Source of the DNA: Gemmataceae bacterium | GTDB taxonomy: Bacteria > Planctomycetota > Planctomycetia > Gemmatales > Gemmataceae | Length of the DNA stretch: 64,000 nucleotides | Direction: 5' to 3' | Assembly (NCBI GenBank): GCA_036557565.1 | Contig: DATBHJ010000114.1 | Span: 1,174-65,173, forward strand | In this document: positions 45,593-57,394 of the stretch, piece after piece | Layout of the letters: each line of letters starts with the position of its first letter | Numbering within the stretch: the stretch's first letter is position 1 | Translations under genes and position numbers: made by a program | The notes under the pieces: generated by a model | What the model saw: only the letters and a program-made list of their open reading frames with translations | Databases searched by the model: none | What the model was told of the DNA's origin: nothing

Positions 45593-46180
45593 TCAGGCGC
45601 TCCGGGCATTAACCTGCCGGGCGTCAAGAGGCTGCAACATCCAGCCCTCGATTTCCACAGAGGCTCCACGCTGGATGAAGTCAACCTCGATAACAAATCG
45701 CATGTTTTTATCGCGTCGGATTACTTTTCCGTGGAGGCCGGCAAGGGGGCCCGCGGTTAGCACGACTGTCATACCCGATTGAAGACGATCCTCGGGCGCT
45801 ACAGGGGCGCCACACTCCATTAGCTGGTAGATTCTCTTCAAATCCGTTCTCAGCCGTTCTCCCTCGGAGACCGACAGCACGCGAATGATTTGGTTTGTTC
45901 GCAGAGCTTCCAGACGCGCGTTTTCATCGCCGCGCAGAAAGACATAGCTAGGAAACAGGGGGACATAGGATGCCAACGAACGCCCACGGATTTGTAACCG
46001 TTTTTGATACAGGGGGAGAAAGAAATCTATCCGGAGCGCTAGAAGTTTACGAGCCAATGCCTTCTCTGCTCGAGGACGAGTATGCAGGACCCACCACGAC
46101 TCTGTTGCTTCTGGGTCTTGACAAGACGCTGTCAAGAGGTCGGCTGGTTGCACGAATGGTTCCAGTGGTAGAAGTGGCAT
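45593..46180 (-). CDS. specialised NusG paralog (NGN + KOW; UpxY/RfaH/LoaP-like operon-specific antiterminator candidate)
   Basis: NGN domain: WWVLHTRPRAEKALARKLLALRIDFFLPLY...VPLFPSYVFLRGD. KOW motif: GMTVVLTAGPLAGLHGKVI. It is the first gene of the 30-kb minus-strand operon. ATG 46180. Confidence 0.85.
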   Translation of the reverse strand: MPLLPLEPFVQPADLLTASCQDPEATESWWVLHTRPRAEKALARKLLALRIDFFLPLYQKRLQIRGRSLASYVPLFPSYVFLRGDENARLEALRTNQIIRVLSVSEGERLRTDLKRIYQLMECGAPVAPEDRLQSGMTVVLTAGPLAGLHGKVIRRDKNMRFVIEVDFIQRGASVEIEGWMLQPLDARQVNARSA

Positions 46181-46294
46181 CGACAAAACCTTGGATTGAT
46201 CGCCTTCGATCCACCCGTCATCCTTCCTTAATTACCAACCTTCCCTTCCTTCATCCTGAAGGGGAAAACATCAATAAAAGCACCCTTATTCGCC

Positions 46295-46705: not shown

Positions 46706-48218
46706 GCACGTCTGCCGGGAGTGAGCATACACGCTAGTTGAAGGTTGGAGGACGTCAAGACGTCTCTTTTAGCCGCAGCGGGGCAGGGCAGGTGCTGAGG
46801 GCAGCCTGACCAAGAGGAGGTAATCTACTGTCGGAGGTCATAAGGAATTAGCAAATCAGAACTCTTGCGATTAGAATAACAATCAGACTCCGACTCGATA
46901 TCTTCGGTGCCACTGACAACATGACTGGTCCAAGAACCGATGGCAGATAAGACTGAGGGCGATGTTAAGAAAAGCATATTGCATGTCCCGAGTGATCTCG
47001 GTTGCCGAGCAGAGATTGCGAAAGCCGTGCCCGCACGATAAGGTGCGCTCGACGACACAGCGATACGCTCCTAGGCATACAAGTTGCGGCACCTCCTCGT
47101 CAGGAGGTGTACCGGCACTATCGGCGTCATCCGTTTTTCTGAGGACACAGGCGTCGTCACCGACCGCGACCAACCCGCAGCCATCGTCGCTATTTCCAAT
47201 CTCAAGCGACTTGCCGGATGGACAACTTACTGCAGAGAGTCGAGAGCGCTTATCGCCCACCTCAGAGCCTCGTATCTTGCACCTGCCTGATGACGCCGAG
47301 ATCCTAACGTCGTTGTCATTCTACCTCATCCGCCAACATTCTGCTACACCCGTTGTCTTAATTCATCGCAAATTCGCCTCATTATAGCGTGAGGCGAGCT
47401 TACCTTTCTTCTTTCGTGTAGTCCATCCTCACACGCTGCCCGTGCTGGGGACGGCCTACTTTGTCGCTTGGTACCCAGCTTGCAAGCCTGGGCGGTACGG
47501 TTTTCCCTAAACCGGACCGCCCGGGGGCAGGGGCGGTCCCATGATAGGAGATCACTCCCATGCTGACACAATGATCCTCCTCCGCTGCCGCTCACCTGCA
47601 GGCCTTCTTTCTCGTCATCGTCCTCCCAAGGATGCTGTCCCTTGGCCAAGTGTTCTTTCGCGGTATCCAGCGTCCACACCGCTAGGAAGACCGCCATCCA
47701 AGAAATGATTGGACTGGCTTGTTTTGGCACCTGAAACTGGCAGAAAGGGGCAAAGATACCACCCGCTTCCCGACCGCTCTCGCTTCCTCTGCCGCCCACG
47801 CTGAGCCAACGGTGCGCCACTTTTGTGGCCAGAAAAGAGCCAACGAAGTCCCGTCACCCGTGGCGCAGCAACAGCATCACTTCGCCCTCCGTGAACTTCC
47901 GGTTTTCGAGCCACTAGCCGTTCCGCCGGTAAGTGAGGTCCGACACGACAAGACTCAGTCGCCACCGGATGAAATCGTCTGCCTCAACCTGGATTTCGCC
48001 AGCAAGCGAGCCAGTTGAAGTAAGCATGATCGAGACATCGTCGAGGAGCTCATGCTTGGCGCGAGCGCGATCGACGTTGCCGATAATTACCAAGTCAGCC
48101 TCGTACCCATCTTGCAAAAGAGAAGAGTTTCACCAGTATCGGCAGGCCCTCTGCGGAACCCTGCCCTTGGCCCCGGCCTCTACCTCTACCATCAGCATTA
48201 TTTGAGCGAAGAGGAACC

Positions 48219-48413
48219 ATGAGCGCGTACTTGTTGTTCGAAGAATTCCACCTGACCGTTCTCGTCTCTGCGGACCTGGAAGAATCCGCGTGTGAAGCAA
48301 TCCACCGGATCCTCGTGAGTCGACCCTTTCACACCGCACTGGACTCCGCCGTCCGCCAAGTCGTCCGCCAATACTCCGATCTCGACCCGATCCGGGTCCG
48401 CATCTCCCACTAA
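48219..48413 (+). CDS. hypothetical 64-aa protein, first ORF of the cassette
   Basis: ATG preceded by a GAAGAGGA SD. Acidic, helical-looking sequence with no family recognised. Confidence 0.45.
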   Translation: MSAYLLFEEFHLTVLVSADLEESACEAIHRILVSRPFHTALDSAVRQVVRQYSDLDPIRVRISH

Positions 48414-48533
48414 CCGACTCAAAACAATTCTGCTTGCAGCGACAATCCAGAGTTGCCCTCAGCTGGTGCACCGGAATGTTGCCGCAGCGCCGGCCTCTTT
48501 TCACTTAACCCAAGCACAGGAGGAACTGTCCGG

Positions 48534-48896
48534 ATGTCACACATCGTCACGCTGCAAACGAAGGTGCACGATCACGCCGCCGTGGTTGCCGCTTGCCAGC
48601 GACTCAACCTCACTCCGCCGCAGCAAGGTACCGCTCGGCTCTACAGTGGGGAGGCTGAGGGGCTCATGGTGCAGCTGCCCGGCTGGCAATACCCCATCGT
48701 CATCGATACCCTCAGCGGCATCGTCCGCTACGACAACTTCGAGGGACGATGGGGCGAGCCACAACACCTCGATCGTTTCTTGCAACTCTATGCCGTCGAA
48801 CGAGCGAAACTGGAAGCGCGCAAGAAGGGTTACACCGTCAGCGAGCAAGCCCTCCAGGATGGAAGCATCCGAGTGCAAATCACCCAAGGCTTTTGA
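48534..48896 (+). CDS. DUF1257 / Ycf35-like protein
   Basis: ATG 48534 follows an AGGAGG SD. MSHIVTLQTKVHDHAAVVAACQRLNL...WQYPIVID...FLQLYAVERAKLEARKKGYTVSEQALQDGSIRVQI matches my recollection of the DUF1257 pattern (MSH..T..T start, ~120 aa). Confidence 0.75.
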   Translation: MSHIVTLQTKVHDHAAVVAACQRLNLTPPQQGTARLYSGEAEGLMVQLPGWQYPIVIDTLSGIVRYDNFEGRWGEPQHLDRFLQLYAVERAKLEARKKGYTVSEQALQDGSIRVQITQGF

Positions 48897-49069
48897 CTCG
48901 ACCATCTCTCCCTCTTGACAAAAACTCCTCTGGAGCGCCCGAGCCTGCACGGCACGCCAGTGAAGCATTGCCCTTTCTTCTGTGGATCTCGAACAAGAAC
49001 ACCGACAGCGGCGTGCCGGCCGAAGAGCCAGCACTAATCCTCTTTCTCAGTCCGTCACAAGGAACCTTC

Positions 49070-49258
49070 ATGCCGCGCATCATCGAGGTCATCGTCTCGC
49101 CGCAGGGCGAGGTCACCCTGCAAACCAAAGGCTACGCCGGCAGCGACTGCTTAGAGGCCAGCAGGTTTCTGGAGCAAGCGCTCGGCATCGTCACCAACGA
49201 CCGGAAAACGACGGAGTTCTATCAAAAGGAGACAGCCCAGCAACAACTCAGGCAATAA
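49070..49258 (+). CDS. DUF2997-like small protein
   Basis: 62 aa: MPRIIEVIVSPQGEVTLQTKGYAGSDCLEASRFLEQALGIVTNDRKTTEFYQ. This follows the family pattern I recall (I.V.pdG.V...v.G..G..C...T..le.aLG). Confidence 0.7.
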   Translation: MPRIIEVIVSPQGEVTLQTKGYAGSDCLEASRFLEQALGIVTNDRKTTEFYQKETAQQQLRQ

Positions 49259-49371
49259 CCCTTGCCCCCTCCGGCGGCCTCGCGTCGCGCAGAACGCCGA
49301 TGCGAGACCGCCTTCCTTCTACGATCAGCTCCAACTATCCCAAAAACCTGGCCCAAAGAAACGGACGGCTC

Positions 49372-50853
49372 ATGAACCTGACCGAACGCCTGACCGACTA
49401 TGTCCATGCCGCCTGCACCGGCTTGTGGATTCAGACCCAGGAAGCCGATGAGGCCGAGCGAGAAATCCTCCAGCACGCCAGCCAGCAGGACTGGAAGCTG
49501 GCTATCTGGGACGTGACCAACGGCCTGCGTCTGGCCGGAGCCAGCAGCCCGATCAGCACCGACACTCGCGATCCGCTGGCGGCACTGCGGGCCCTACCTT
49601 CTCTGGCCGAACGCAACGGCACAGCGCTATTACTGCTTCACCAATTCCATCGATTTCTCAATCATCCCGAAGTGATTCAGACGATGTTCAACCAACTCGT
49701 CGCTGGCAAGCAGCAACGCACCTTCCTGGTAGTTTTATCACCGCTGGTGCAAATCCCTGTCGAGCTGGAGAAGCTCTTCATCGTCCTCGAACATGCCCTC
49801 CCAGATCGCCAGCAACTCGAAGGGATCGCCCGCGAGCTTACCAGCGACGCGCCCGAGGACTTGCCCCAAGGAGAAGCTCTCGAGCGCGTTCTCGATGCCG
49901 CGGTGGGATTGACACGCTACGAAGCCGAGGCTGCCTTCGCCCTGTCCTTGACCCGGCACAATGCCATCCGGCCCGATAGCGTGTGGGAACTGAAAGCGCA
50001 GACGCTCAAGAAGAACAACCTGCTAACGCTGCACCGCGGCAGCGAACGCTTCGATACACTGGGTGGACTGGCCAGCCTCAAGGACTTCTGCCGCCGCGCC
50101 CTGCAAACGGGCAAGACGGTCAAGCCCCGTGGCATCTTACTTTTGGGTGTCCCCGGCACGGGCAAGAGTTGCTTCGCGCGGGCCCTGGGTAACGAGGTCG
50201 GCCGTCCCACCCTGCTATTGGACATCGGCGCGCTGTATGGCTCATTGGTTGGTTCTACCGAAACCAACATCCGCCAGGCTCTTCGCATAGCCGACGCCAT
50301 GAGTCCGTCGGTGCTTTTTGTGGATGAGCTGGAAAAAGCGCTCAGCGGCGTAGGTGGTGCGGGCGACAGCGGCGTGGCCACGCGGCTGTTTGGTACGTTT
50401 TTAACCTATCTGTCCGATCGAACCAGTGACACGTTTGTGATCGGAACCTGTAACGACATCTCCAAATTACCTCCGGAATTCTCCCGCGCCGAACGCTGGG
50501 ACGGGATTTTCTTTCTCGACCTTCCCCATAGCACCGACAAGGATGCCATTTGGACGCTCTATCGCCGTCAGTTCGGCATTGCGGACGGCCAGGCGCGACC
50601 GGATGATACAGACTGGACGGGGGCCGAAATCTGCTCGTGTTGCCGTCTGGCAGCCTTGCTGGACGTCCCCCTGACGCAAGCTGCCCATCACGTCGTGCCA
50701 GTGGCCGTCACTGCCGCCGAAGCCGTGGAACGGCTACGCAACTGGGCCTCGGGTCGCTGCCTGAGTGCCTCCTATCCGGGTATCTACACGCGTCACGGCA
50801 GTATGGGATCACGCCCCAGCCGAAAGATCCGACGCGATCCCTCCAGCAACTAA
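49372..50853 (+). CDS. Ycf46-like classical-clade AAA+ ATPase with ~230-aa N-terminal domain
   Basis: Walker A GILLLGVPGTGKS, Walker B SVLFVDELEKA, GDSGVATRLFGTFLTYL, second region of homology LPPEFSRAERWDGIFFLDLP, and C-terminal VERLRNWASGR. I prefer ATG 49372 (MNLTERLTDYV); the long track ORF begins inside the DUF2997 region. Confidence 0.85.
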   Translation: MNLTERLTDYVHAACTGLWIQTQEADEAEREILQHASQQDWKLAIWDVTNGLRLAGASSPISTDTRDPLAALRALPSLAERNGTALLLLHQFHRFLNHPEVIQTMFNQLVAGKQQRTFLVVLSPLVQIPVELEKLFIVLEHALPDRQQLEGIARELTSDAPEDLPQGEALERVLDAAVGLTRYEAEAAFALSLTRHNAIRPDSVWELKAQTLKKNNLLTLHRGSERFDTLGGLASLKDFCRRALQTGKTVKPRGILLLGVPGTGKSCFARALGNEVGRPTLLLDIGALYGSLVGSTETNIRQALRIADAMSPSVLFVDELEKALSGVGGAGDSGVATRLFGTFLTYLSDRTSDTFVIGTCNDISKLPPEFSRAERWDGIFFLDLPHSTDKDAIWTLYRRQFGIADGQARPDDTDWTGAEICSCCRLAALLDVPLTQAAHHVVPVAVTAAEAVERLRNWASGRCLSASYPGIYTRHGSMGSRPSRKIRRDPSSN

Positions 50854-51006
50854 GACTCCTTCGCCGGCGCCTTTCTGTCCCCATTGCCGTCGCCAGTTCC
50901 CATCCTTCCGCACTGGCAAGTGCTTGTCCCATTGCGTGACTTGATCACGGCAAGGGGCAGGTGCGGATGAAGATCGATCATCCTTCTCTTGGTCCAGGAG
51001 TCGTTC

Positions 51007-51966
51007 ATGAGCACCCTTCGCGTATCCGACATTCCGCTGGTTCCCGAAAGCCCGGCCCAGCGCCTGCGCCGGCTGGCCGCGGCCGTGCGCGTCCATTTCA
51101 CCTGGTGGGGAGTCCACCGCACCCTCACGGCACGTCAGAAGGAAGAAGTCGGCGTCACCTACGATGCTGATGCCCGCTTCCTCACTGCTGGCAAAAAGCT
51201 GGTGGATACCCGCCATGAAGCATTTCGCCGGCTGACAGCGCTGCGCACGCTGGTCAGCAATTACTGGCGCGGCCTGACGCTTCCCTACGTTGAGGTTGGC
51301 GTCCGCCTCATCCGCCAGAACGACATCGAGCCGTTTGTGCATACCTTGACCGGCTTCCGTGAAGAATTGACACAAGCAGAAGCCGATCTCAATGCTGTCT
51401 TCGAGGAGATTAAGGCAGATGCCCAACGCCGCCTGGGGCGGCTGTACGATCCGTCCGATTATCCGCCGGAAGTCCGGGGACTGTTCGGGCTGGACTGGGA
51501 TTTCCCCTCCGTAGAGCCGCCCAACTACCTGCTGCAAATAGCTCCGGAAGTTTACGAACAGGAGCAGCAGCGTATCGGCCGCCGCTTTGAGCAAGCCATT
51601 GAGCTGGCCGAGCAAGCGTTCCTGGGTGAGTTCGCGCGTCTGGTCTCGCATCTCACAGAAAGGTTGAACAGTACCTCTGATGGCGAGCGCAAGGTCTTCC
51701 GCGATTCAGCGGTGACGAACCTCATGGACTTCTTCGAGCGATTCCGCCATCTGAATGTGCGCTCGAACGTGCAATTGGACGAGTTGGTCGAGCAAGCGCA
51801 GCGCGTCGTTCAGGGGGTGGGTGCGCAGGAACTGCGCACGAGCGCGGACTTGCGGCAGCACGTGGCCACGCAGCTGGCCGGTGTGGAGTCGGCCCTGGAC
51901 GGCCTGCTGGTTGAACGGCCGCGGCGGAGCCTGGTGCGCAACCGGCCAAACCAGGGAGGACATTGA
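51007..51966 (+). CDS. hypothetical 319-aa helical protein (faint resemblance to DUF3150-type plasmid/ICE proteins, unverified)
   Basis: ATG 51007 with an AGGAG SD 6 nt upstream. The pattern is ...VHFTWWGVHRTL...AGKKLVD...LPYVEVGVRLI...LYDPSDYPPEV.... A long antisense ORF is judged a shadow. Confidence 0.7.
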   Translation: MSTLRVSDIPLVPESPAQRLRRLAAAVRVHFTWWGVHRTLTARQKEEVGVTYDADARFLTAGKKLVDTRHEAFRRLTALRTLVSNYWRGLTLPYVEVGVRLIRQNDIEPFVHTLTGFREELTQAEADLNAVFEEIKADAQRRLGRLYDPSDYPPEVRGLFGLDWDFPSVEPPNYLLQIAPEVYEQEQQRIGRRFEQAIELAEQAFLGEFARLVSHLTERLNSTSDGERKVFRDSAVTNLMDFFERFRHLNVRSNVQLDELVEQAQRVVQGVGAQELRTSADLRQHVATQLAGVESALDGLLVERPRRSLVRNRPNQGGH

Positions 51967-52226
51967 TGGAGCTACTCATCCGTCCGGGTGGCGAGGTTCG
52001 CTGTGTTTATGGCGAAGCCATCGACCTAGAGGCTCTGGGGCAGCCGCACATCACGCGGGCTAGCATGGTCGAGCCGGACGAGCAGGGGCGATGGTGGGCT
52101 GACCTTTCTCCCGTAAATGGTCCGCTCCTGGGTCCCTTTCGGCAGAGGACGCAGGCCCTGGACGCCGAAGAGGTATGGTTGAGCCGATATTGGTTAATGG
52201 CGCCGAGCTCGACTGCTCAGCAGTAG
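51966..52226 (+). CDS. hypothetical 86-aa protein, translationally coupled to the previous ORF
   Basis: TGATG stop/start overlap at 51964-51968. MELLIRPGGEVRCVYGEAIDLEALGQPHITRASMVEPDEQGRWWADLSPVNGPLLGPF. Confidence 0.6.
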   Translation: MELLIRPGGEVRCVYGEAIDLEALGQPHITRASMVEPDEQGRWWADLSPVNGPLLGPFRQRTQALDAEEVWLSRYWLMAPSSTAQQ

Positions 52227-52384
52227 CTTCGTGAGGACCGTGGACCCGCTCTTGTCTTGAAGCGAGGTTCGCTCAAGCCCAACACAGTCAACACGCAAGG
52301 AGACCGGCCCTTACCAGCCGACGCGCCGGTTCTCGAACATCCCATCCGCTGGCGATCGCAAACGTGGTCCAAGGAGAGAAGCTC

Positions 52385-52573
52385 GTGAAAGTAACCATCG
52401 AAAACGGCGAGCTGGTCATTCGGCTGCCCTTGAACAAGACGCCGATTCCCTCCAGTAGCGGCAAAACTTTGGTTATCGCCTCAACGCACGGCAATCAGAA
52501 GACGGATGCCGTCGTCAACGGCCAGCCCGTCGTCGTCGGGGTCAACGCCTACATCGCCCGGCTCACGCGCTGA
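52385..52573 (+). CDS. hypothetical 62-aa beta-rich protein
   Basis: GTG 52385 preceded by an AAGGAGAG SD. VKVTIENGELVIRLPLNKTPIPSSSGKTLVIASTHGNQKTDAVVNGQPVVVGVNAYI. Confidence 0.55.
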   Translation: MKVTIENGELVIRLPLNKTPIPSSSGKTLVIASTHGNQKTDAVVNGQPVVVGVNAYIARLTR

Positions 52574-52694
52574 GCTGGGAAACAAGAGGTGGGCCCTTCG
52601 CTGTCAGCCTCCCATTCACAAATGATGATTGCCCGTTCTCCCTGCACCGCAGGGCGGGCCGTCTTTCTTTCCCTCTTCTTGCCAAGGAGCCTGT

Positions 52695-52997
52695 GTGACG
52701 ACACCGACCGAAAAACCGCGCAAGGCCACGGCCCGAGACCTGTTCTTTTTCGCGAATCCCGAACATTGGCCGACGTGGCCGGTCCTGCCTGTGGTTCGCC
52801 GCCATGACGATGGCGAGATGCAATGTGGACTCCTTTACGACATCATGCACCTCAGCGGACGCACCGGCTTTAGCAGCACCGTCTTTTTGTGCAATATCTT
52901 CCTGATGCCACAGAATGAGGACGAGTTCCTTGCCTTGCCCAAGGAAGTATTCGACTCGCCCGAGGAAATGGCGGCGGCTGGCTGGTGCGTCGATTGA
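52695..52997 (+). CDS. hypothetical 100-aa protein
   Basis: GTG 52695 preceded by an AAGGAG SD. ...DLFFFANPEHWPTWPVLPVVRR...STVFLCNIFLMPQNEDEFLALPKEVFDSPEEMAAAGWCVD. Confidence 0.55.
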   Translation: MTTPTEKPRKATARDLFFFANPEHWPTWPVLPVVRRHDDGEMQCGLLYDIMHLSGRTGFSSTVFLCNIFLMPQNEDEFLALPKEVFDSPEEMAAAGWCVD

Positions 52998-53638
52998 AGA
53001 CTGGCTGGTTCTGCGTGGAGATGCCCGGGTAATTGAACCGAATTCTGGAAGGAATCAGATCGTGCCGCGAGTCCCGACGCTGCCTCGACTCCTGCGAAGG
53101 TAGCTCAAGCGGGTCGGTTCCGACTTTTGCCTGAACTACCTGCAGAAGATCAGCCGTCGCGTTTCGGGCCACAAGAGCCTTCCCGCCCCGAATCATTGGA
53201 ACTGTGAAGGTGATAAGAGCCAAGAGCCCAAGCGCATGCCAATGACCTCGACGCTGTTCGAGGACAACGGCGACAGTACCTATGCCAACGGTCTTTCAGC
53301 ATCTTCGGTCGAGTTGGTCACACGAGCACTTAAAGCCGGAGCTGCCGTCGCGCCGCTCCCAAGCTGCCAGGATTTCAAGGACGTCCCGCGCCTGGAAAGG
53401 CTTTTTGATTGATCATTGCTCCGGCAGGCGGGAAGGCCGCCGGCATAAGCGGCGCCAGAAATCCCATATGGATCCGGATGTCCCAAGCCGCTCGCCGCTG
53501 CTCCAGGCGTCGTTGGGGCGGCGATCTCACTTTATCGCTTGGCGGTCGGGGATAGTTTGCTCAAGAAGGAATCCACTCTGGCCAGGACGCACCGACCTTT
53601 TCCCCTTTCCCGAGTTCTTTCCACCAGGAGTCAGAATC

Positions 53639-55087
53639 GTGATCGTACTGCCACGCTCTCTGGCCCGGCAGTTCCGGGTCTTCTTGCGTCGTTGTCTACA
53701 ACCGCCGGGTCCACGCCAACCGCCATTCATTCGCCTGCAGGCCGACTCGCATGGCCTTGAACTCTTAGCACACCAGCAGGAATGCGTGATCGTCTACCAG
53801 CAGCCCGGAAAATGGGCCCGCGAAACGCTCTTCTTTCCTGCCGACGTGCTGGCCGACATCGAAGGCAAAGACGGCTCGGCCACGCTGGAAACAACCGGAG
53901 AAGGCAAGGGCGAAGCCCGCTGGGACGATGCTGGTAGCCCGCGCGTTAGACCCTTCGATTCAGTGAAGCCCGAAAGGATGCCCGAAGTGCCGGCGATGCC
54001 CGCACACTTTCAGCCCATCGAGCCGGCCTTTCTGCAAGCGCTGGCTGAGGCAACCCGGACAACCGCTCGTGATCGTGTTCACTATGCGCTTACGCGCCTC
54101 CAGTTGCGAGGACGGCGTGGCCAGCTGATAGCCACGGATGGACGGCAATTGCTCTTACAAGTCGGCTTCTCTTTGCCCTGGCCCGAGGATCTCCTCATTC
54201 CTGCTCTGCCGTTGTTCGTAAGCCGCGACCTGCCGGTTAGCGAGCCACTCGCCATTGGTCGCACCGACAAGCACGTCAGCTTGCGCATTGGTCCCTGGAC
54301 CTTTCATTTGGAGATTGACAAAGACGGCCGCTATCCCAACGTCGAGAGCGTCATCCCCAAGATAGACACCACGGCCAGCCGGCTGCATCTGTCCGAGGAC
54401 GATGCCCGCTTTCTTGTCCATGTCTTGCCCCGACTGCCAGGTAATGAAGACGGTTCGGCACCCGTGACCCTCGATCTGGGCCAAGAGGTGCGGCTGCGGG
54501 CACGAGCCGAGGACTCGCCCCAGATCAGCGAAGTTTTACTGTCCGGCTCGTCTTGTGAAGGGCCCCCTGTCCGCATCGCCTGCAACCGACGCTTTCTGTG
54601 GCGTGCCGTGCAATTGGGCTTCCGCGCCATTCTTATCCGCAACGCCACTACTCCCTTGGTGTGCCGTGATGAGACACGGACCTATCTGTTCATGCCGTTG
54701 GACGGCGTCTTGGCGCCCGCGGCCGACGCCGTGCGCATTGTTTCGGGCGAGACTCTCTCTGTCGTCACCGAGGCCAAACCGGAACTTCAACCCCAAAGAG
54801 ACAAACCCAAACCCGAGCCCAAAAGGAGCCGAGCAACCATGCCTCGATCTCAAACGAATGGTGAGGAACCACGCAACGGTCCTGCGGGAGTTCCAACGAC
54901 GCCGCGCCCCTCTTCCGAAGCGGAAGCGCCCGACGCGCTGGTAGAAGCGGAGGCCTTGCGCTCGCTGCTGCACGAAGCCCAGATGCGGCTCGGTCACCTG
55001 CTGGCCGCGCTCAAGCAGCAACGGCGGCACAACCGTGCCCTACGAGCCGCCATGGATTCGCTGCGCGGTCTGCGGCTGGATCGCTGA
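53639..55087 (+). CDS. DNA polymerase III beta sliding-clamp (DnaN) homolog with ~125-aa low-complexity + coiled-coil C-terminal extension
   Basis: GTG 53639 after an AGGAG SD. Four collinear DnaN-like motifs appear at DnaN-like spacing: QLIATDGRQLL (~aa 165), GRYPNVESVIPK (~230), ACNRRFLWRAVQLGF (~315) and TYLFMPLDG (~350). The tail is ...EAEALRSLLHEAQMRLGHLLAALKQQRRHNRALRAAMDSL. Confidence 0.8.
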   Translation: MIVLPRSLARQFRVFLRRCLQPPGPRQPPFIRLQADSHGLELLAHQQECVIVYQQPGKWARETLFFPADVLADIEGKDGSATLETTGEGKGEARWDDAGSPRVRPFDSVKPERMPEVPAMPAHFQPIEPAFLQALAEATRTTARDRVHYALTRLQLRGRRGQLIATDGRQLLLQVGFSLPWPEDLLIPALPLFVSRDLPVSEPLAIGRTDKHVSLRIGPWTFHLEIDKDGRYPNVESVIPKIDTTASRLHLSEDDARFLVHVLPRLPGNEDGSAPVTLDLGQEVRLRARAEDSPQISEVLLSGSSCEGPPVRIACNRRFLWRAVQLGFRAILIRNATTPLVCRDETRTYLFMPLDGVLAPAADAVRIVSGETLSVVTEAKPELQPQRDKPKPEPKRSRATMPRSQTNGEEPRNGPAGVPTTPRPSSEAEAPDALVEAEALRSLLHEAQMRLGHLLAALKQQRRHNRALRAAMDSLRGLRLDR

Positions 55088-55117
55088 ACCCCTTGATCCT
55101 GGACCTGGAGAGTGCTT

Positions 55118-55735
55118 ATGAGCTGGGATTCTGCGAGCAGCTGGCCCGTCCGCGGCAAGCTAGCCCGGCATCTGGGCCGTTTACAACAGCACCTGGATTC
55201 AGTCGGAGAACAGGTACGCGAGGCCGTTGCCAACGCTGTTGGCCGTACCGTGGCCGAGGCCGTCGGCGAAGCCGTCTACGATACCCTAGCCCCTTACGCG
55301 GATCCTTCGGCCCCTGAATCTCGCTATTACCACCGCGCTACTGACCGTTCTGTGCGCACCCGGCAAGATTGGGACGATCCAGCCTGGAGGCGCCCTGGAG
55401 ATTCCTCGCCTTGGCGTGATCCCTACGCTGATGACAACTACGACGAACCGCGTTACGACGACGGAGCCGAGGCGGAAGATCGATCCTCCCTCCGCGACGC
55501 GCCGCAGGCGCGGCGTTGGCGGCGGGCAATGGCGGCAGGCCTGCAAGCGGCAGCCTGGTGGCTGCAGCGGCATCCCGGTCAGTTGTCGCTCCTGGTGGCC
55601 TTGGCTGTTGGTTCGGTGGCCGGATTGGCGGTGCTGGCCGGTCCTGTTAGCGGCGTCGCAACTTTGGTGATGTCTGCTCTGGGCTTGGCCTACCTGCTCG
55701 ACCTGGTGCGCTTGTCTAGCGCCCTGCTGGGCTGA
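55118..55735 (+). CDS. tail-anchored membrane protein with xAVx repeat and acidic Trp/Tyr/Asp-rich linker
   Basis: ATG 55118 with a GGAG SD. EAVA-NAVG-RTVA-EAVG-EAVY repeat; DWDDPAWRRPGDSSPWRDPYADDNYDEPRYDD linker; C-terminal hydrophobic region LSLLVALAVGSVAGLAVLAGPVSGVATLVMSALGLAYLL. Confidence 0.7.
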   Translation: MSWDSASSWPVRGKLARHLGRLQQHLDSVGEQVREAVANAVGRTVAEAVGEAVYDTLAPYADPSAPESRYYHRATDRSVRTRQDWDDPAWRRPGDSSPWRDPYADDNYDEPRYDDGAEAEDRSSLRDAPQARRWRRAMAAGLQAAAWWLQRHPGQLSLLVALAVGSVAGLAVLAGPVSGVATLVMSALGLAYLLDLVRLSSALLG

Positions 55736-55780
55736 GACGGCACAACCGGAGCTACACGAAATGGAAGTGTGCCATCCTCA

Positions 55781-55808
55781 CCCGCAGCCGGCAGGCACCG
55801 GCTGCGGG
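55781..55808 (+). terminator. perfect 11-bp stem-loop between the two tail-anchored genes (possible attenuator or intrinsic terminator)
   Basis: CCCGCAGCCGG-caggca-CCGGCTGCGGG followed by TCTTGTTCTG and, 17 nt later, TTTTTTCTT. Read directly from the sequence. Confidence 0.45.
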
Positions 55809-55847
55809 TCTTGTTCTGAGTCAACTTTTTTCTTGGAGATTTCAGCC

Positions 55848-56360
55848 GTGACAGCGACAACGACAATGGGAACGCATACGAACGGCCAGACGCGGAAGAC
55901 GCTGGCCAGCCAGATCGACCGTTTGGACGGCATTCTCGACGGACTGGATGCTGCCCTGGCCGGGGCGGTGCAAGAGGCCGTCGAACAGGCTGTCAAGCAG
56001 GCCGTGCAGGCCGTCTTGGCCGAGGTGCTGACCAACCGCCAGCTACAAGAACAACTGCAACGAACTGCTCGGACAGCTGAGCCGGCTGGGGAATCTGAAT
56101 GTAAACGGAGCCTGCCTTACCGACTATGGCAAGCCACGACCGAGGGCGTGCGGCGCACCGTCCAAATGCTGAAGAAACGTGGCCGCGGTCTCGGCGTGGC
56201 CCTGGTAGCTGCCGGCGCGATGATGACCGGCATCGTCTATGCCGTCCGCAAGAAGTGCATCTTGATCGCCTCGAGCGTGTACCGACACGGCAAGTGCTTG
56301 GCTCTCAGGGCCATCTCGACCTTGACGAGCTTCCTGCCGTCCTTCGCATTTGGCAGCTAA
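55848..56360 (+). CDS. tail-anchored membrane protein with xAVx repeat (paralog-like to 55118..55735)
   Basis: GTG 55848 (GGAG SD) or ATG 55866. GAVQ-EAVE-QAVK-QAVQ-AVLA repeat. C-terminal TM LGVALVAAGAMMTGIVYAV. Confidence 0.65.
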   Translation: MTATTTMGTHTNGQTRKTLASQIDRLDGILDGLDAALAGAVQEAVEQAVKQAVQAVLAEVLTNRQLQEQLQRTARTAEPAGESECKRSLPYRLWQATTEGVRRTVQMLKKRGRGLGVALVAAGAMMTGIVYAVRKKCILIASSVYRHGKCLALRAISTLTSFLPSFAFGS

Positions 56361-57394
56361 GGAAGAGAGTGGAGAGATGAGGTCGGCCTGGCCGGTCTAT
56401 CGCTCGGTTGTAGCGGCACAAGCCGTACCGGAGCGAGTAATCCCGCGCAGGTGCACAACTTGATCTCTCCACTCTTTTCGGCATCGTGGCGGCTAGGGCC
56501 AGCGTCTCGTTACGGCATCCGTCCGGCACGTCAACGATATGGCCCTGAATACATCCAGTCGAGGTTTAGACGTTGGCGGCTGGTCGATTCTTGCCGTCGG
56601 GTGCATCCCGTCGCCCAGACACAGTACAGCGAGACGGACCTGCCAGCGTTGACGGAGTTGGCGACTCAGGTGCTGCTGTCACATATCACGACCGTCGAAT
56701 TGCTCGTAGATAGGATCGATGGAGCCCGCGAGATTTCTGGACAGTTTCTGGAAATAGTCAAACCAATACTGAACGCTGAGAAACACGCTCGCTTGCTCTT
56801 CAACTGCATTTACCGTCCTGCGGAGCCATCCGCGGCCCATCACGCTCATCGCTTTTTTTAACTATCAGAACGAGCTCTGCGGCGGTGGAAATCGTAATTC
56901 TGCCTCTCAATTATGGTCATCTGCTTTCATTGTCGGAACGATCAGGGATACCGTCAGGACAAGCCCTATCCGGTTGGCACAAGAGGTATTTCATCGAGCG
57001 CCGAGACGCCACTGGACGAAACGCTCACGGGCGCTGGCGACCCGCTCGCAGCGAAGGATTAATGGGCTTTCAACGACCCCCATGATTCATGTTCTTTCGG
57101 ATCAAGTTATATGGCACAATCTCCTTCCTTTTCGGGACTGCTGGGACAGACACCATCACCCGCTTGACGTAGGACCGCTTCCTTTGGGCCGTTATGCTCG
57201 CCGAAACTCTATCGCGTCGCCAGTTCCTGGCGGCGGCCCGTACGCTCACCTCGTGGCCATCCCACTATGTCTACTTCGCCGGCAAAGACCCCTGGCCGCC
57301 GAGCAGGAAACCGCAAGCAGACACTTGCGAGATGGGCCACCGAGGCGCTAATCAAATACGGACAAAGAAAGGGGAACTCCAGTCGATAAAACCC

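Follow-up and report, generated by a model that had tools for sequence, protein, structure and literature searches.

In a 64,000-nucleotide stretch of a Gemmataceae bacterium genome (assembly GCA_036557565.1, contig DATBHJ010000114.1, positions 1174 to 65173; hereafter the window), positions 48219-56360 hold a cassette of eleven genes that belongs to a widespread family of modules. The core of these modules is made up of five genes, which encode a DUF1257 protein, a DUF2997 protein, an AAA+ ATPase of the Cdc48/FtsH type, a protein of the DUF3150 superfamily, and a coupled protein of 80-90 amino acids. The core travels on tailed phages, plasmids, and integrating elements in several phyla. Its Planctomycetota versions have gained a divergent beta sliding clamp and, depending on the lineage, membrane-anchored coiled-coil proteins, a GemA-like protein, a Cas4-like nuclease, or an ATP-dependent ligase. 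Based on these results, we favor, at a probability of roughly 0.55, the reading that the cassette is a mobile-element propagation module, serving DNA replication or recombination, that is stranded in this genome. The copy in the window has lost its regulator and has no integrase, and its coding genes are intact.

The open reading frames (ORFs) of the cassette are named o1 to o11 in order:

o1, 48219-48413, plus strand: 64 amino acids, no family match; homologs in 5-7 loci, ratio of nonsynonymous to synonymous substitution rates (dN/dS) 0.43-0.52.
o2, 48534-48896, plus strand: 120 amino acids, divergent DUF1257 (Ycf35-type) protein; dN/dS 0.10-0.34.
o3, 49070-49258, plus strand: 62 amino acids, DUF2997 protein (PF11211).
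o4, 49372-50853, plus strand: 493 amino acids, a single AAA+ module with an N-terminal domain of about 240 residues; gene intact.
o5, 51007-51966, plus strand: 319 amino acids, DUF3150-superfamily protein, with o4 among the most conserved proteins of the cassette.
o6, 51966-52226, plus strand: 86 amino acids, start overlapping the stop of o5 (TGATG).
o7, 52385-52573, plus strand: 62 amino acids; homologs in 4 loci, dN/dS 0.17-0.43.
o8, 52695-52997, plus strand: 100 amino acids; homologs in 8 loci, dN/dS 0.12-0.37.
o9, 53639-55087, plus strand: 482 amino acids from a GTG start, predicted beta-clamp fold.
o10, 55118-55735, plus strand: 205 amino acids; homologs in 5 loci, dN/dS 0.23-0.49.
o11, 55848-56360, plus strand: 170 amino acids from a GTG start; homologs in 3-5 loci.

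An earlier note on this DNA, drawn from the sequence alone, had counted ten ORFs. The eleven listed here are all co-directional and agree with independent Joint Genome Institute (JGI) gene calls (contig Ga0376027_0000492) except at the start codons of o3, o9, and o11, the last of which JGI places at ATG 55866 for a product of 164 amino acids. They are spaced by 30-173 nt, apart from one 1-nt overlap and one 641-nt gap (52998-53638). All the Shine-Dalgarno strings reported earlier were found, 6-12 nt 5' of their start codons, as was the TGATG stop/start overlap, which lies at 51964-51968 with GGAGG 7 nt upstream; because the start of o6 thus overlaps the stop of o5, the two genes are probably translationally coupled. 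All 11 ORFs are under purifying selection, with dN/dS values of 0.10-0.58 against four diverged copies (L004, L005, L008, and L013; L numbers designate related loci), values that reflect selection over the whole divergence between copies and not present-day selection in this genome. Even the ORFs of 62-100 amino acids are therefore real genes.

We scanned species-representative genomes with an alignment of 13 o5 sequences and confirmed at least 408 stretches as o5 relatives, the best 80 of which underlie the neighborhood results given here. Almost all of these 80 loci are from Planctomycetota (Gemmataceae, Isosphaeraceae, Pirellulales, Planctomycetaceae, Phycisphaerae, and Kuenenia), and they include the Tundrisphaera plasmid pP12_2. 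The same gene order was found in more than 80 loci, which is more than chance would give. At least nine genomes hold two to five copies each, with o5 56-100% identical between copies; in CP043547.1, two copies are 94% identical over 6.25 kb. Co-occurrence was counted in the 42 Planctomycetota loci with full flanks, where the genes always lie on one strand:

o5: 42 of 42 loci.
o6: 42 of 42 loci.
AAA+ protein: 39 of 42 loci.
DUF1257/DUF2997: 36 of 42 loci.
An 88-amino-acid protein: 29 of 42 loci.
Clamp: 28 of 42 loci.
GemA-like protein: 20 of 42 loci.
JAB-E1 (ThiF)/ubiquitin-like (Ubl)/Cys-rich module: 8 of 42 loci, 7 of these without clamp.
Sigma-like regulator: 7 of 42 loci.
Cas4-like nuclease: 7 of 42 loci.
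Large serine recombinase: 4 of 42 loci.
ATP-dependent ligase: 4 of 42 loci.

The constant partners of the DUF1257, DUF2997, and AAA+ triad are o5 and o6 (42/42) and not the clamp (28/42), to which the triad had been coupled in the earlier note, where o5 bore no label. The JAB-E1 module consists of a Ubl-like small protein, a Cys-rich protein of about 330 amino acids, and a JAB-E1 (ThiF) fusion, and is seen at L014 4603-7300, L083 5639-9291, and L022 128-2800; its E1 part resembles the anti-phage model 6A-MBL cap2_3 (E 4e-15), and its N terminus is weakly Cap3-like. The flanking gene clusters are not common to different loci, and the relatives adjoin CRISPR-Cas, transposase, and toxin-antitoxin genes. 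Flanks differ among relatives, and the cassette does not occupy a conserved core position in the chromosome, an arrangement that would have spoken against the earlier proposal; its description as a real, conserved, accessory cassette of proteins without assigned function holds. Group II intron reverse transcriptases and insertion sequence (IS) elements were repeatedly observed in or beside cassettes (L008 3470-5098, L054 from 20523, and L068 from 4805).

Phages and plasmids also carry the core. In two IMG/VR loci on temperate-phage contigs (L092 and L093), it is followed in order by a Sak4-type annealing protein, an integrase, a primase, a large terminase, and a portal, and in L093 a Cas4-like nuclease lies ahead of Sak4. 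The acidobacterial phage Tunturi_3 encodes the AAA+, DUF1257, and DUF2997 proteins, an o5 homolog, and a probable o6-like ORF (E 1e-5). On a plasmid of Candidatus Manganitrophus (Nitrospirota), RadC/JAB is followed by AAA+, DUF1257, DUF2997, DUF3150, and an o6 homolog. In L099, L100, and four other loci, the cassette directly adjoins a large serine integrase. Among cluster O mycobacteriophages, the AAA+ protein is full length in all 34 matching records. In the cluster O phage Smooch, where the AAA+ gene is gp98 and gp97 follows it, the gene block continues downstream with genes for a Ku-like protein, a ParB-like nuclease, and a DnaN clamp, and the AAA+ protein was the sole match when all cassette proteins were compared with this phage by BLASTP; in phage Dylan, of the same cluster, the protein next to AAA+ weakly matches the o5 fold (E 1.3e-3). 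The Streptococcus satellite Javan368 was also considered and set aside, as it has only the ATPase in common and not the module. The earlier note had preferred a stand-alone DNA-sensing system and had named the core of a decayed integrated element as an alternative; the latter fits our results better.

The assignment of o4 to the AAA+ family is firm (PF00004, E 1.2e-23). The protein has a Walker A motif (GVPGTGKS) at residue 259, a Walker B motif (VLFVDE) at 314, a pore loop (LVGSTE) at 292, and arginine fingers (PPEFSRAERWD) at 367. Its best PDB matches are Cdc48/p97 (E ~1e-35), and over its full length it matches phrog_8638, a family of unknown function, at E 2e-79; judged by its sequence, o4 is an AAA+ protein of the classical Cdc48/p97/FtsH-type clade. 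Two analogies that had been drawn for the module, to a clamp loader with its clamp and to TRIP13 with HORMA, are consequently not family relationships. The clamp-loader PHROG reached only 1e-4, as against 2e-79 for phrog_8638; the PADLOC TRIP13 model gave E 1.1e-3 over 66 residues only, and there was no HORMA match. A place for o4 in the clamp-loader (RFC/gamma-delta') clade was rejected, its nearest relatives being Cdc48/p97 and FtsH-type proteins instead. The term Ycf46-like, applied to o4 in the earlier note, is kept here only as that note's label.

The AAA+ gene is whole in the window and split or frameshifted in L004 (6168-7726), L008, L088 (7640-9135), L098 (6770-8266), and L099 (6790-7976). 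Copies with a broken AAA+ gene, which include many from Gemmataceae, keep o5, o6, and the clamp intact. Either another copy may provide them with the ATPase in trans, or the AAA+ gene may be the first to decay. In a BLASTP comparison with o4, gp103 of Tunturi_3 (L006 5153-6748) was seen to have a segment of about 38 residues with a Walker B-like sequence (IIWYDEIEKGF) ahead of Walker A and no stretch corresponding to the Walker B region of o4; gp103 may be a rearranged or degenerate ATPase.

The two small partners of the ATPase in the triad differ in how clearly they can be placed. For o3, the DUF2997 label is secure (PF11211, E 5.7e-15, 55.4 bits against a cut-off of 24.1), and homologs of 62 amino acids are called in L002, L004, and L005. 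For o2, the DUF1257 label stands for the family, and the window protein itself falls just under the threshold (E 7e-4, 20.2 bits against a cut-off of 22.2): the Pfam model is matched by 10 of 20 aligned o2-family members, the best at 8.6e-8, and the o2 homolog on the Manganitrophus plasmid carries the DUF1257 annotation. A DUF1257-family profile gave no significant match to a solved structure.

The o5 family is large, with 5477 cluster representatives (50% clustering, E<=1e-3). By tblastn, o5 is 31% identical (E 3e-34) to annotated DUF3150 proteins on plasmids; o5 itself has no direct Pfam match to DUF3150 (PF11348), and weak matches occur in 4 of 61 relatives. Its AlphaFold2 model is of high confidence (predicted local distance difference test score [pLDDT] of 94.5), and models of phage DUF3150 proteins match it with template-modeling (TM) scores of 0.70-0.79, one of them at TM 0.73/0.79 and E 1.2e-14. 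Neither a Foldseek search of the PDB with the model (best E 0.33, no fold match) nor the o5-family profile found a significant solved structure. Thus, o5 belongs to the DUF3150 superfamily, which has no solved fold. Its small partner is likewise conserved: o6 is 43% identical, with all motifs kept, to a small gene 3' of DUF3150 on the Nitrospirota plasmid, and these motifs are invariant across phyla. The o6-family profile had no PDB match. Invariant Asp, His, and Glu residues of the DUF3150/o6 pair (D67, H70, E96, D151, E202, E208, and H215) are candidates for a part in metal binding or catalysis.

The label of beta-clamp homolog given earlier to o9 is well supported by structure prediction. 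The AlphaFold2 model (pLDDT 86.5) comprises three clamp domains (residues 1-370), a disordered linker (372-429), and a conserved C-terminal helix (433-476). Its top Foldseek matches are all DnaN, and PDB DnaN chains align with E ~4e-21, a target TM of 0.77, and 16-18% identity over about 380 columns. A profile of the o9 family (43 sequences) reached PDB DnaN at 8.5e-10, and o9 matched phrog_947 at 7.6e-7; the Pfam DNA_pol3_beta models and the NCBIfam DnaN model gave nothing at E<=0.1. We conclude that o9 is predicted to have a true three-domain beta-clamp fold. The start at 53639 is backed by homologs covering 100% of the query and by a ribosome-binding site and GTG conserved in L004. The clamp evolves faster than the core, with a dN of ~0.5 versus 0.2-0.3 in comparisons with L005 and L013. 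On an IMG/VR contig, a clamp of the window's type adjoins a large serine integrase and a helicase; tblastn with the clamp returned one weak phage match (cyanophage S-H1 DnaN, 3e-4) and no plasmid match. A regular-expression search for clamp-binding motifs produced only uninformative matches, and library scans found neither a polymerase nor a clamp loader in the cassette. As a separate observation, residues 382-465 of o9 (54782-55033) weakly match the c6 "GemA-like" family (E 1e-3). Since other lineages encode c6 on its own, immediately 3' of the clamp gene, the C-terminal linker and helix of o9 may stem from a fusion with a c6-type gene.

The remaining genes, o1, o7, o8, o10, and o11, are found only in 3-8 close Gemmataceae relatives. 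The two longest had been described as tail-anchored xAVx-repeat proteins and as part of what defines the system. The features themselves are present: o10 has an N-terminal helix of (E/Q)AV repeats, an acidic middle region rich in Pro, Asp, and Trp, and a C-terminal hydrophobic region (153-200), and o11, which is weakly similar to o10 (E 0.006), combines an (E/Q)AV-repeat helix with a single transmembrane segment (residues ~114-134). A defining role does not follow, since proteins of this type are confined to 3-5 close Gemmataceae relatives. Searches of Pfam, NCBIfam, and PADLOC with o1, o5-o8, and o10 gave only weak, chance-level matches, and Pfam offered nothing useful for o11. Library scans also agreed with the earlier note that the 11 ORFs contain no integrase, capsid, relaxase, polymerase, nuclease, or toxin domain. 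Its statement that the cassette is no named defense system is upheld by a scan of o1-o10 against PADLOC-DB v2, in which only the ATPase core matched, plus a weak Cas11 match of o5 (E 0.0019).

Several features around and between the genes bear on the state of the window copy:

47686-48219, plus strand: remnant of a sigma-70/extracytoplasmic function (ECF)-like regulator (cluster c12), recognized with the c12 profile.
52998-53638, no strand: variable spacer of 641 nt preceding the clamp gene o9.
55780-55809, plus strand: G+C-rich hairpin of 12 bp with a T-rich tail, between o10 and o11.
56362-56479, plus strand: stem-loop of 118 nt with a 22-nt inverted repeat followed by UUUUC, directly 3' of o11.

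The regulator remnant aligns with the 206 positions of the c12 profile in two pieces, 47686-48015 (positions 49-145, E 1.6e-37) and 48019-48219 (positions 150-183, E 5.7e-6). Its N terminus, with region 2, is gone, and a stop codon near 48016 interrupts what remains; it is thus a pseudogene of the cassette's sigma-like regulator, intact copies of which (204-274 amino acids) head the cassette in L005, L013, and L015. The spacer ahead of the clamp gene is 641 nt long in the window, 167 in L004, 72 in L005, and ~470 in L008, and these versions are mutually unalignable; about 480 bp of it (roughly 53000-53480), including a nonconserved ORF of 58 amino acids at 53236-53412, have no counterpart in L004 or L005, the closest relatives. 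No repeats and no Rfam matches were found in the spacer (52998-53638), and the window as a whole has no tRNA genes or Rfam matches. The hairpin between o10 and o11 is a candidate internal terminator or attenuator, which suggests that o11 may be separately transcribed or attenuated. The stem-loop after o11 (folding energy of 56355-56490, -69.8 kcal/mol, z = -6.15) probably forms the 3' boundary of both the transcription unit and the conserved block, and may act as a terminator or as a structure at the end of the element. A sigma-70 promoter scan showed no excess over the shuffled expectation, with a model that is ill-suited to Planctomycetota.

At the DNA level, the window copy aligns with its nearest counterpart, L004, only between 47844 and 56472; outside these limits the two sequences are unrelated. 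No terminal inverted or direct repeats of the kind that mark transposons or att sites flank the block around 46.1-57.5 kb, the stem-loop after o11 being the one feature of note in that search. A complete prophage, integrative and conjugative element, or plasmid was rejected for the region of 46-57 kb, which has no integrase, relaxase, structural, transfer, or replication-initiator gene; given that relatives lie in phage contigs, on plasmids, and by serine integrases, the window copy is at most a fragment. Its neighbors are a glycosyltransferase cluster headed by a NusG paralog on one side and a GT2 gene on the other, with an IS630 remnant nearby. The NusG-domain paralog (45593-46186, minus strand, E 1.3e-9), which heads a minus-strand DUF218/glycosyltransferase cluster to the left of the island, may be a dedicated antiterminator for a polysaccharide operon.

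How might a propagation module of this kind work? In the reading we favor, a hexamer of the AAA+ protein, with the DUF1257 and DUF2997 proteins as adaptors, would remodel or unload an assembly of proteins on DNA. At the center of this assembly would be the DUF3150/o6 pair and the clamp ring, and its role would lie in the replication, recombination, or establishment of the element. The DUF3150/o6 pair would then be a candidate substrate or co-machine of the ATPase, and the 58-residue disordered linker and terminal helix of the clamp could serve as a handle for a pore-threading unfoldase. The ATPase appears to be a Cdc48-type pore-loop unfoldase, so the most plausible target of its remodeling is protein and not DNA; eukaryotic Cdc48/p97 strips closed rings such as Ku and CMG from DNA. 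The clamp and the Cas4-like nuclease, ligase, Sak4, and primase found nearby suggest a part in replicating or recombining the element. The copy in the window would be immobile, and either kept as useful or simply not yet decayed.

Several considerations weigh against this reading. The mechanism, including the link of the AAA+ protein to the clamp or to DUF3150, is wholly one that we infer. Many phage and plasmid versions of the core have no recognizable clamp, so that the clamp cannot be a universal substrate. The earlier note had reasoned that homologous cassettes lying always inside complete prophages or plasmids would make this a replication module of such elements. Phage, plasmid, and integrase contexts do exist, but most Planctomycetota copies lie more than 10 kb from any structural, replication-initiator, or integrase gene, so that they do not look like obvious pieces of complete elements. 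In cyanobacteria the triad forms a stress operon on the chromosome, which shows that it can also exist apart from mobile elements. Finally, the alternation of the clamp with the Cap2/Cap3-like JAB-E1 module and the nearby defense genes are also expected of an anti-phage or anti-plasmid conflict system carried as cargo by mobile elements. In such a system, the core would be a sensor or switch, the clamp or the JAB-E1/Ubl module a swappable arm targeting DNA or proteins, and the membrane proteins, nuclease, and ligase the effectors. The modular swap is clear (clamp in 28 loci, JAB-E1/Ubl-like module in 8, both in one locus only), and the resemblance of the E1 to cap2_3 and of its N terminus to Cap3, the cassette's own sigma-like and XRE regulators, the similarity of the ATPase core to IetA (E 1e-13), and the faster evolution of the clamp noted above all go in the same direction, as do neighbors such as type I-C CRISPR-Cas, HicA, DUF433/DUF5615 toxin-antitoxin genes, and a HerA-like ATPase with an M78 peptidase. 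We nevertheless hold a conflict system to be doubtful. The PADLOC matches concern only the generic ATPase core, library scans found no recognizable effector in the window version, and up to five copies per genome would be unusual for defense; moreover, the AAA+ protein is full length in all of the matching cluster O records, and the core on phage contigs sits amid recombination and replication genes, a setting more typical of propagation than of cargo.

The state of the window copy raises the question of whether it is an inert leftover of an integrated element that brings this host no benefit. The regulator pseudogene, the missing integrase, the ~480 bp of foreign DNA ahead of the clamp gene, the IS630 remnant nearby, and the frameshifted AAA+ genes of sister copies would all suit decay. 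Yet all 11 ORFs are intact, with ribosome-binding sites and complete catalytic motifs, and dN/dS is well below 1, a value that speaks for the whole divergence and not for this genome today; we regard an inert leftover as unlikely. Far less probable still is that the cassette serves as a housekeeping stress operon, a counterpart of the ycf46/ycf35 triad of cyanobacteria and plastids; its distribution goes most of the way to refuting this. The same three families are present, DUF1257 (Ycf35; supported at the level of the o2 family), DUF2997, and a single-module AAA+ protein, and the ycf46 operon of Synechococcus has three genes and is induced by stress (bioRxiv 10.1101/2025.07.21.665879). Against an equivalent role stand flanks that differ between close relatives, diverged multiple copies in one genome, copies that are often pseudogenized, the presence of the cassette on phages and plasmids, and the fact that a link to DUF3150/o6 or to a clamp is not reported for cyanobacteria. 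A stranded module for the propagation of mobile elements thus remains the reading that we prefer.

We also put forward, tentatively, a broader proposal, which we consider possible and somewhat less than likely: the five-gene core may be an unrecognized prokaryotic segregase, composed of a Cdc48-like unfoldase, two adaptors, and the novel-fold DUF3150/o6 pair, that plugs into a clamp or into JAB-E1/Ubl tagging and extracts or recycles proteins on DNA. Such a machine would parallel the eukaryotic PCNA-ubiquitin/SUMO-p97 axis and could be ancestral to it.

Uncharacterized modules are common on mobile elements; this one is solid, widespread, and testable. It has thousands of members in phages, plasmids, and bacterial islands of several phyla, is made of parts without known function, and includes, in the DUF3150 protein, a confidently predicted fold with no solved relative. 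If the AAA+ protein acts on the clamp or on Ubl-tagged targets, the module would be a bacterial and phage counterpart of the eukaryotic removal of proteins from DNA by p97 and would give a first functional handle on the cyanobacterial and plastid Ycf46 and Ycf35. If it is a defense system instead, it would be of a new type, with swappable clamp or Ubl arms. Cultured carriers are at hand in Singulisphaera sp. Ch08, Planctomycetales bacterium 10988, and Tundrisphaera lichenicola P12 (plasmid pP12_2), and tractable phages with the core or its AAA+ protein in the cluster O mycobacteriophages and Tunturi_3. Intact cassettes lie within 9,652,265-9,673,131 of NZ_CP155447.1 in Singulisphaera sp. Ch08 and, as two copies, in CP043547.1 of Planctomycetales bacterium 10988.

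Among known systems, the nearest in gene content is the Ycf46-Ycf35-DUF2997 set of cyanobacteria and plastids, which shares three families with the cassette, DUF1257 being supported across the o2 family. DUF2997 and DUF1257 are adjacent in cyanobacteria (PMC4284462). The cyanobacterial set is chromosomal and single copy, with no DUF3150, o6, or clamp partner reported, whereas the present cassette is mobile, multicopy, and larger. A search of the open literature (DUF1257, DUF2997, DUF3150, PRTRC, Ycf46-phage, and beta-clamp conflict topics) did not turn up a description of the cassette.

On the Cupriavidus plasmid pMTS2, DUF3150 lies between a MoxR-like ATPase and a VWA protein, adjacent to genes of the PRTRC (ParB-related, ThiF-related cassette) system and close to ThiF/E1-type genes; there too an AAA+ protein stands beside DUF3150, and the Planctomycetota cassettes resemble this trio in pairing their core with JAB-E1/Ubl-like (ThiF) genes. 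The proteobacterial trio, itself uncharacterized, differs in using a MoxR/CobS-type ATPase and a VWA protein, in place of the classical AAA+, DUF1257, and DUF2997 proteins of the cassette. Membership in the PRTRC system was rejected, as the window holds no ParB, ThiF, or PRTRC protein and the ThiF proteins of sister loci score 17.7-27.5 bits on the PRTRC_ThiF model against a cut-off of 144.75. The IetAS/SgiAT systems, defense or toxin-antitoxin pairs in which an AAA+ protein is joined by an S8 protease, are borne by mobile elements (PMC10954446), as is the cassette. Their ATPase core is similar to that of the cassette (PADLOC IetA, E 1e-13) over residues ~240-405 of o4 only, and with no IetS/S8 protease partner in the window, membership in this system was also rejected.

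The clamp o9 shares the three-domain fold of DnaN, and the Smooch phage offers a comparable pairing, with the AAA+ homolog and the DnaN clamp ~6.4 kb apart. It departs from DnaN in its 16-18% identity, in its lack of a dnaA-dnaN-recF context, and in the extra disordered linker and C-terminal helix.

The closest solved relatives of the o4 module are the Cdc48/p97/VAT segregases, which have the same classical pore loop and arginine fingers; p97 extracts ubiquitylated or ring-shaped proteins from chromatin, an activity brought to mind by the association of o4 with a clamp and, at other loci, with Ubl-conjugation genes. The two small partners of o4 could be adaptors, like the cofactors of Cdc48/p97/VAT. 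Unlike these segregases, o4 has one AAA+ module and not two, and an unrelated N-terminal domain, so that a functional likeness is something we infer. As a system, then, the cassette matches no described kind. Its components, however, come from DUF families already known, and it probably serves as an accessory module of phages or plasmids.

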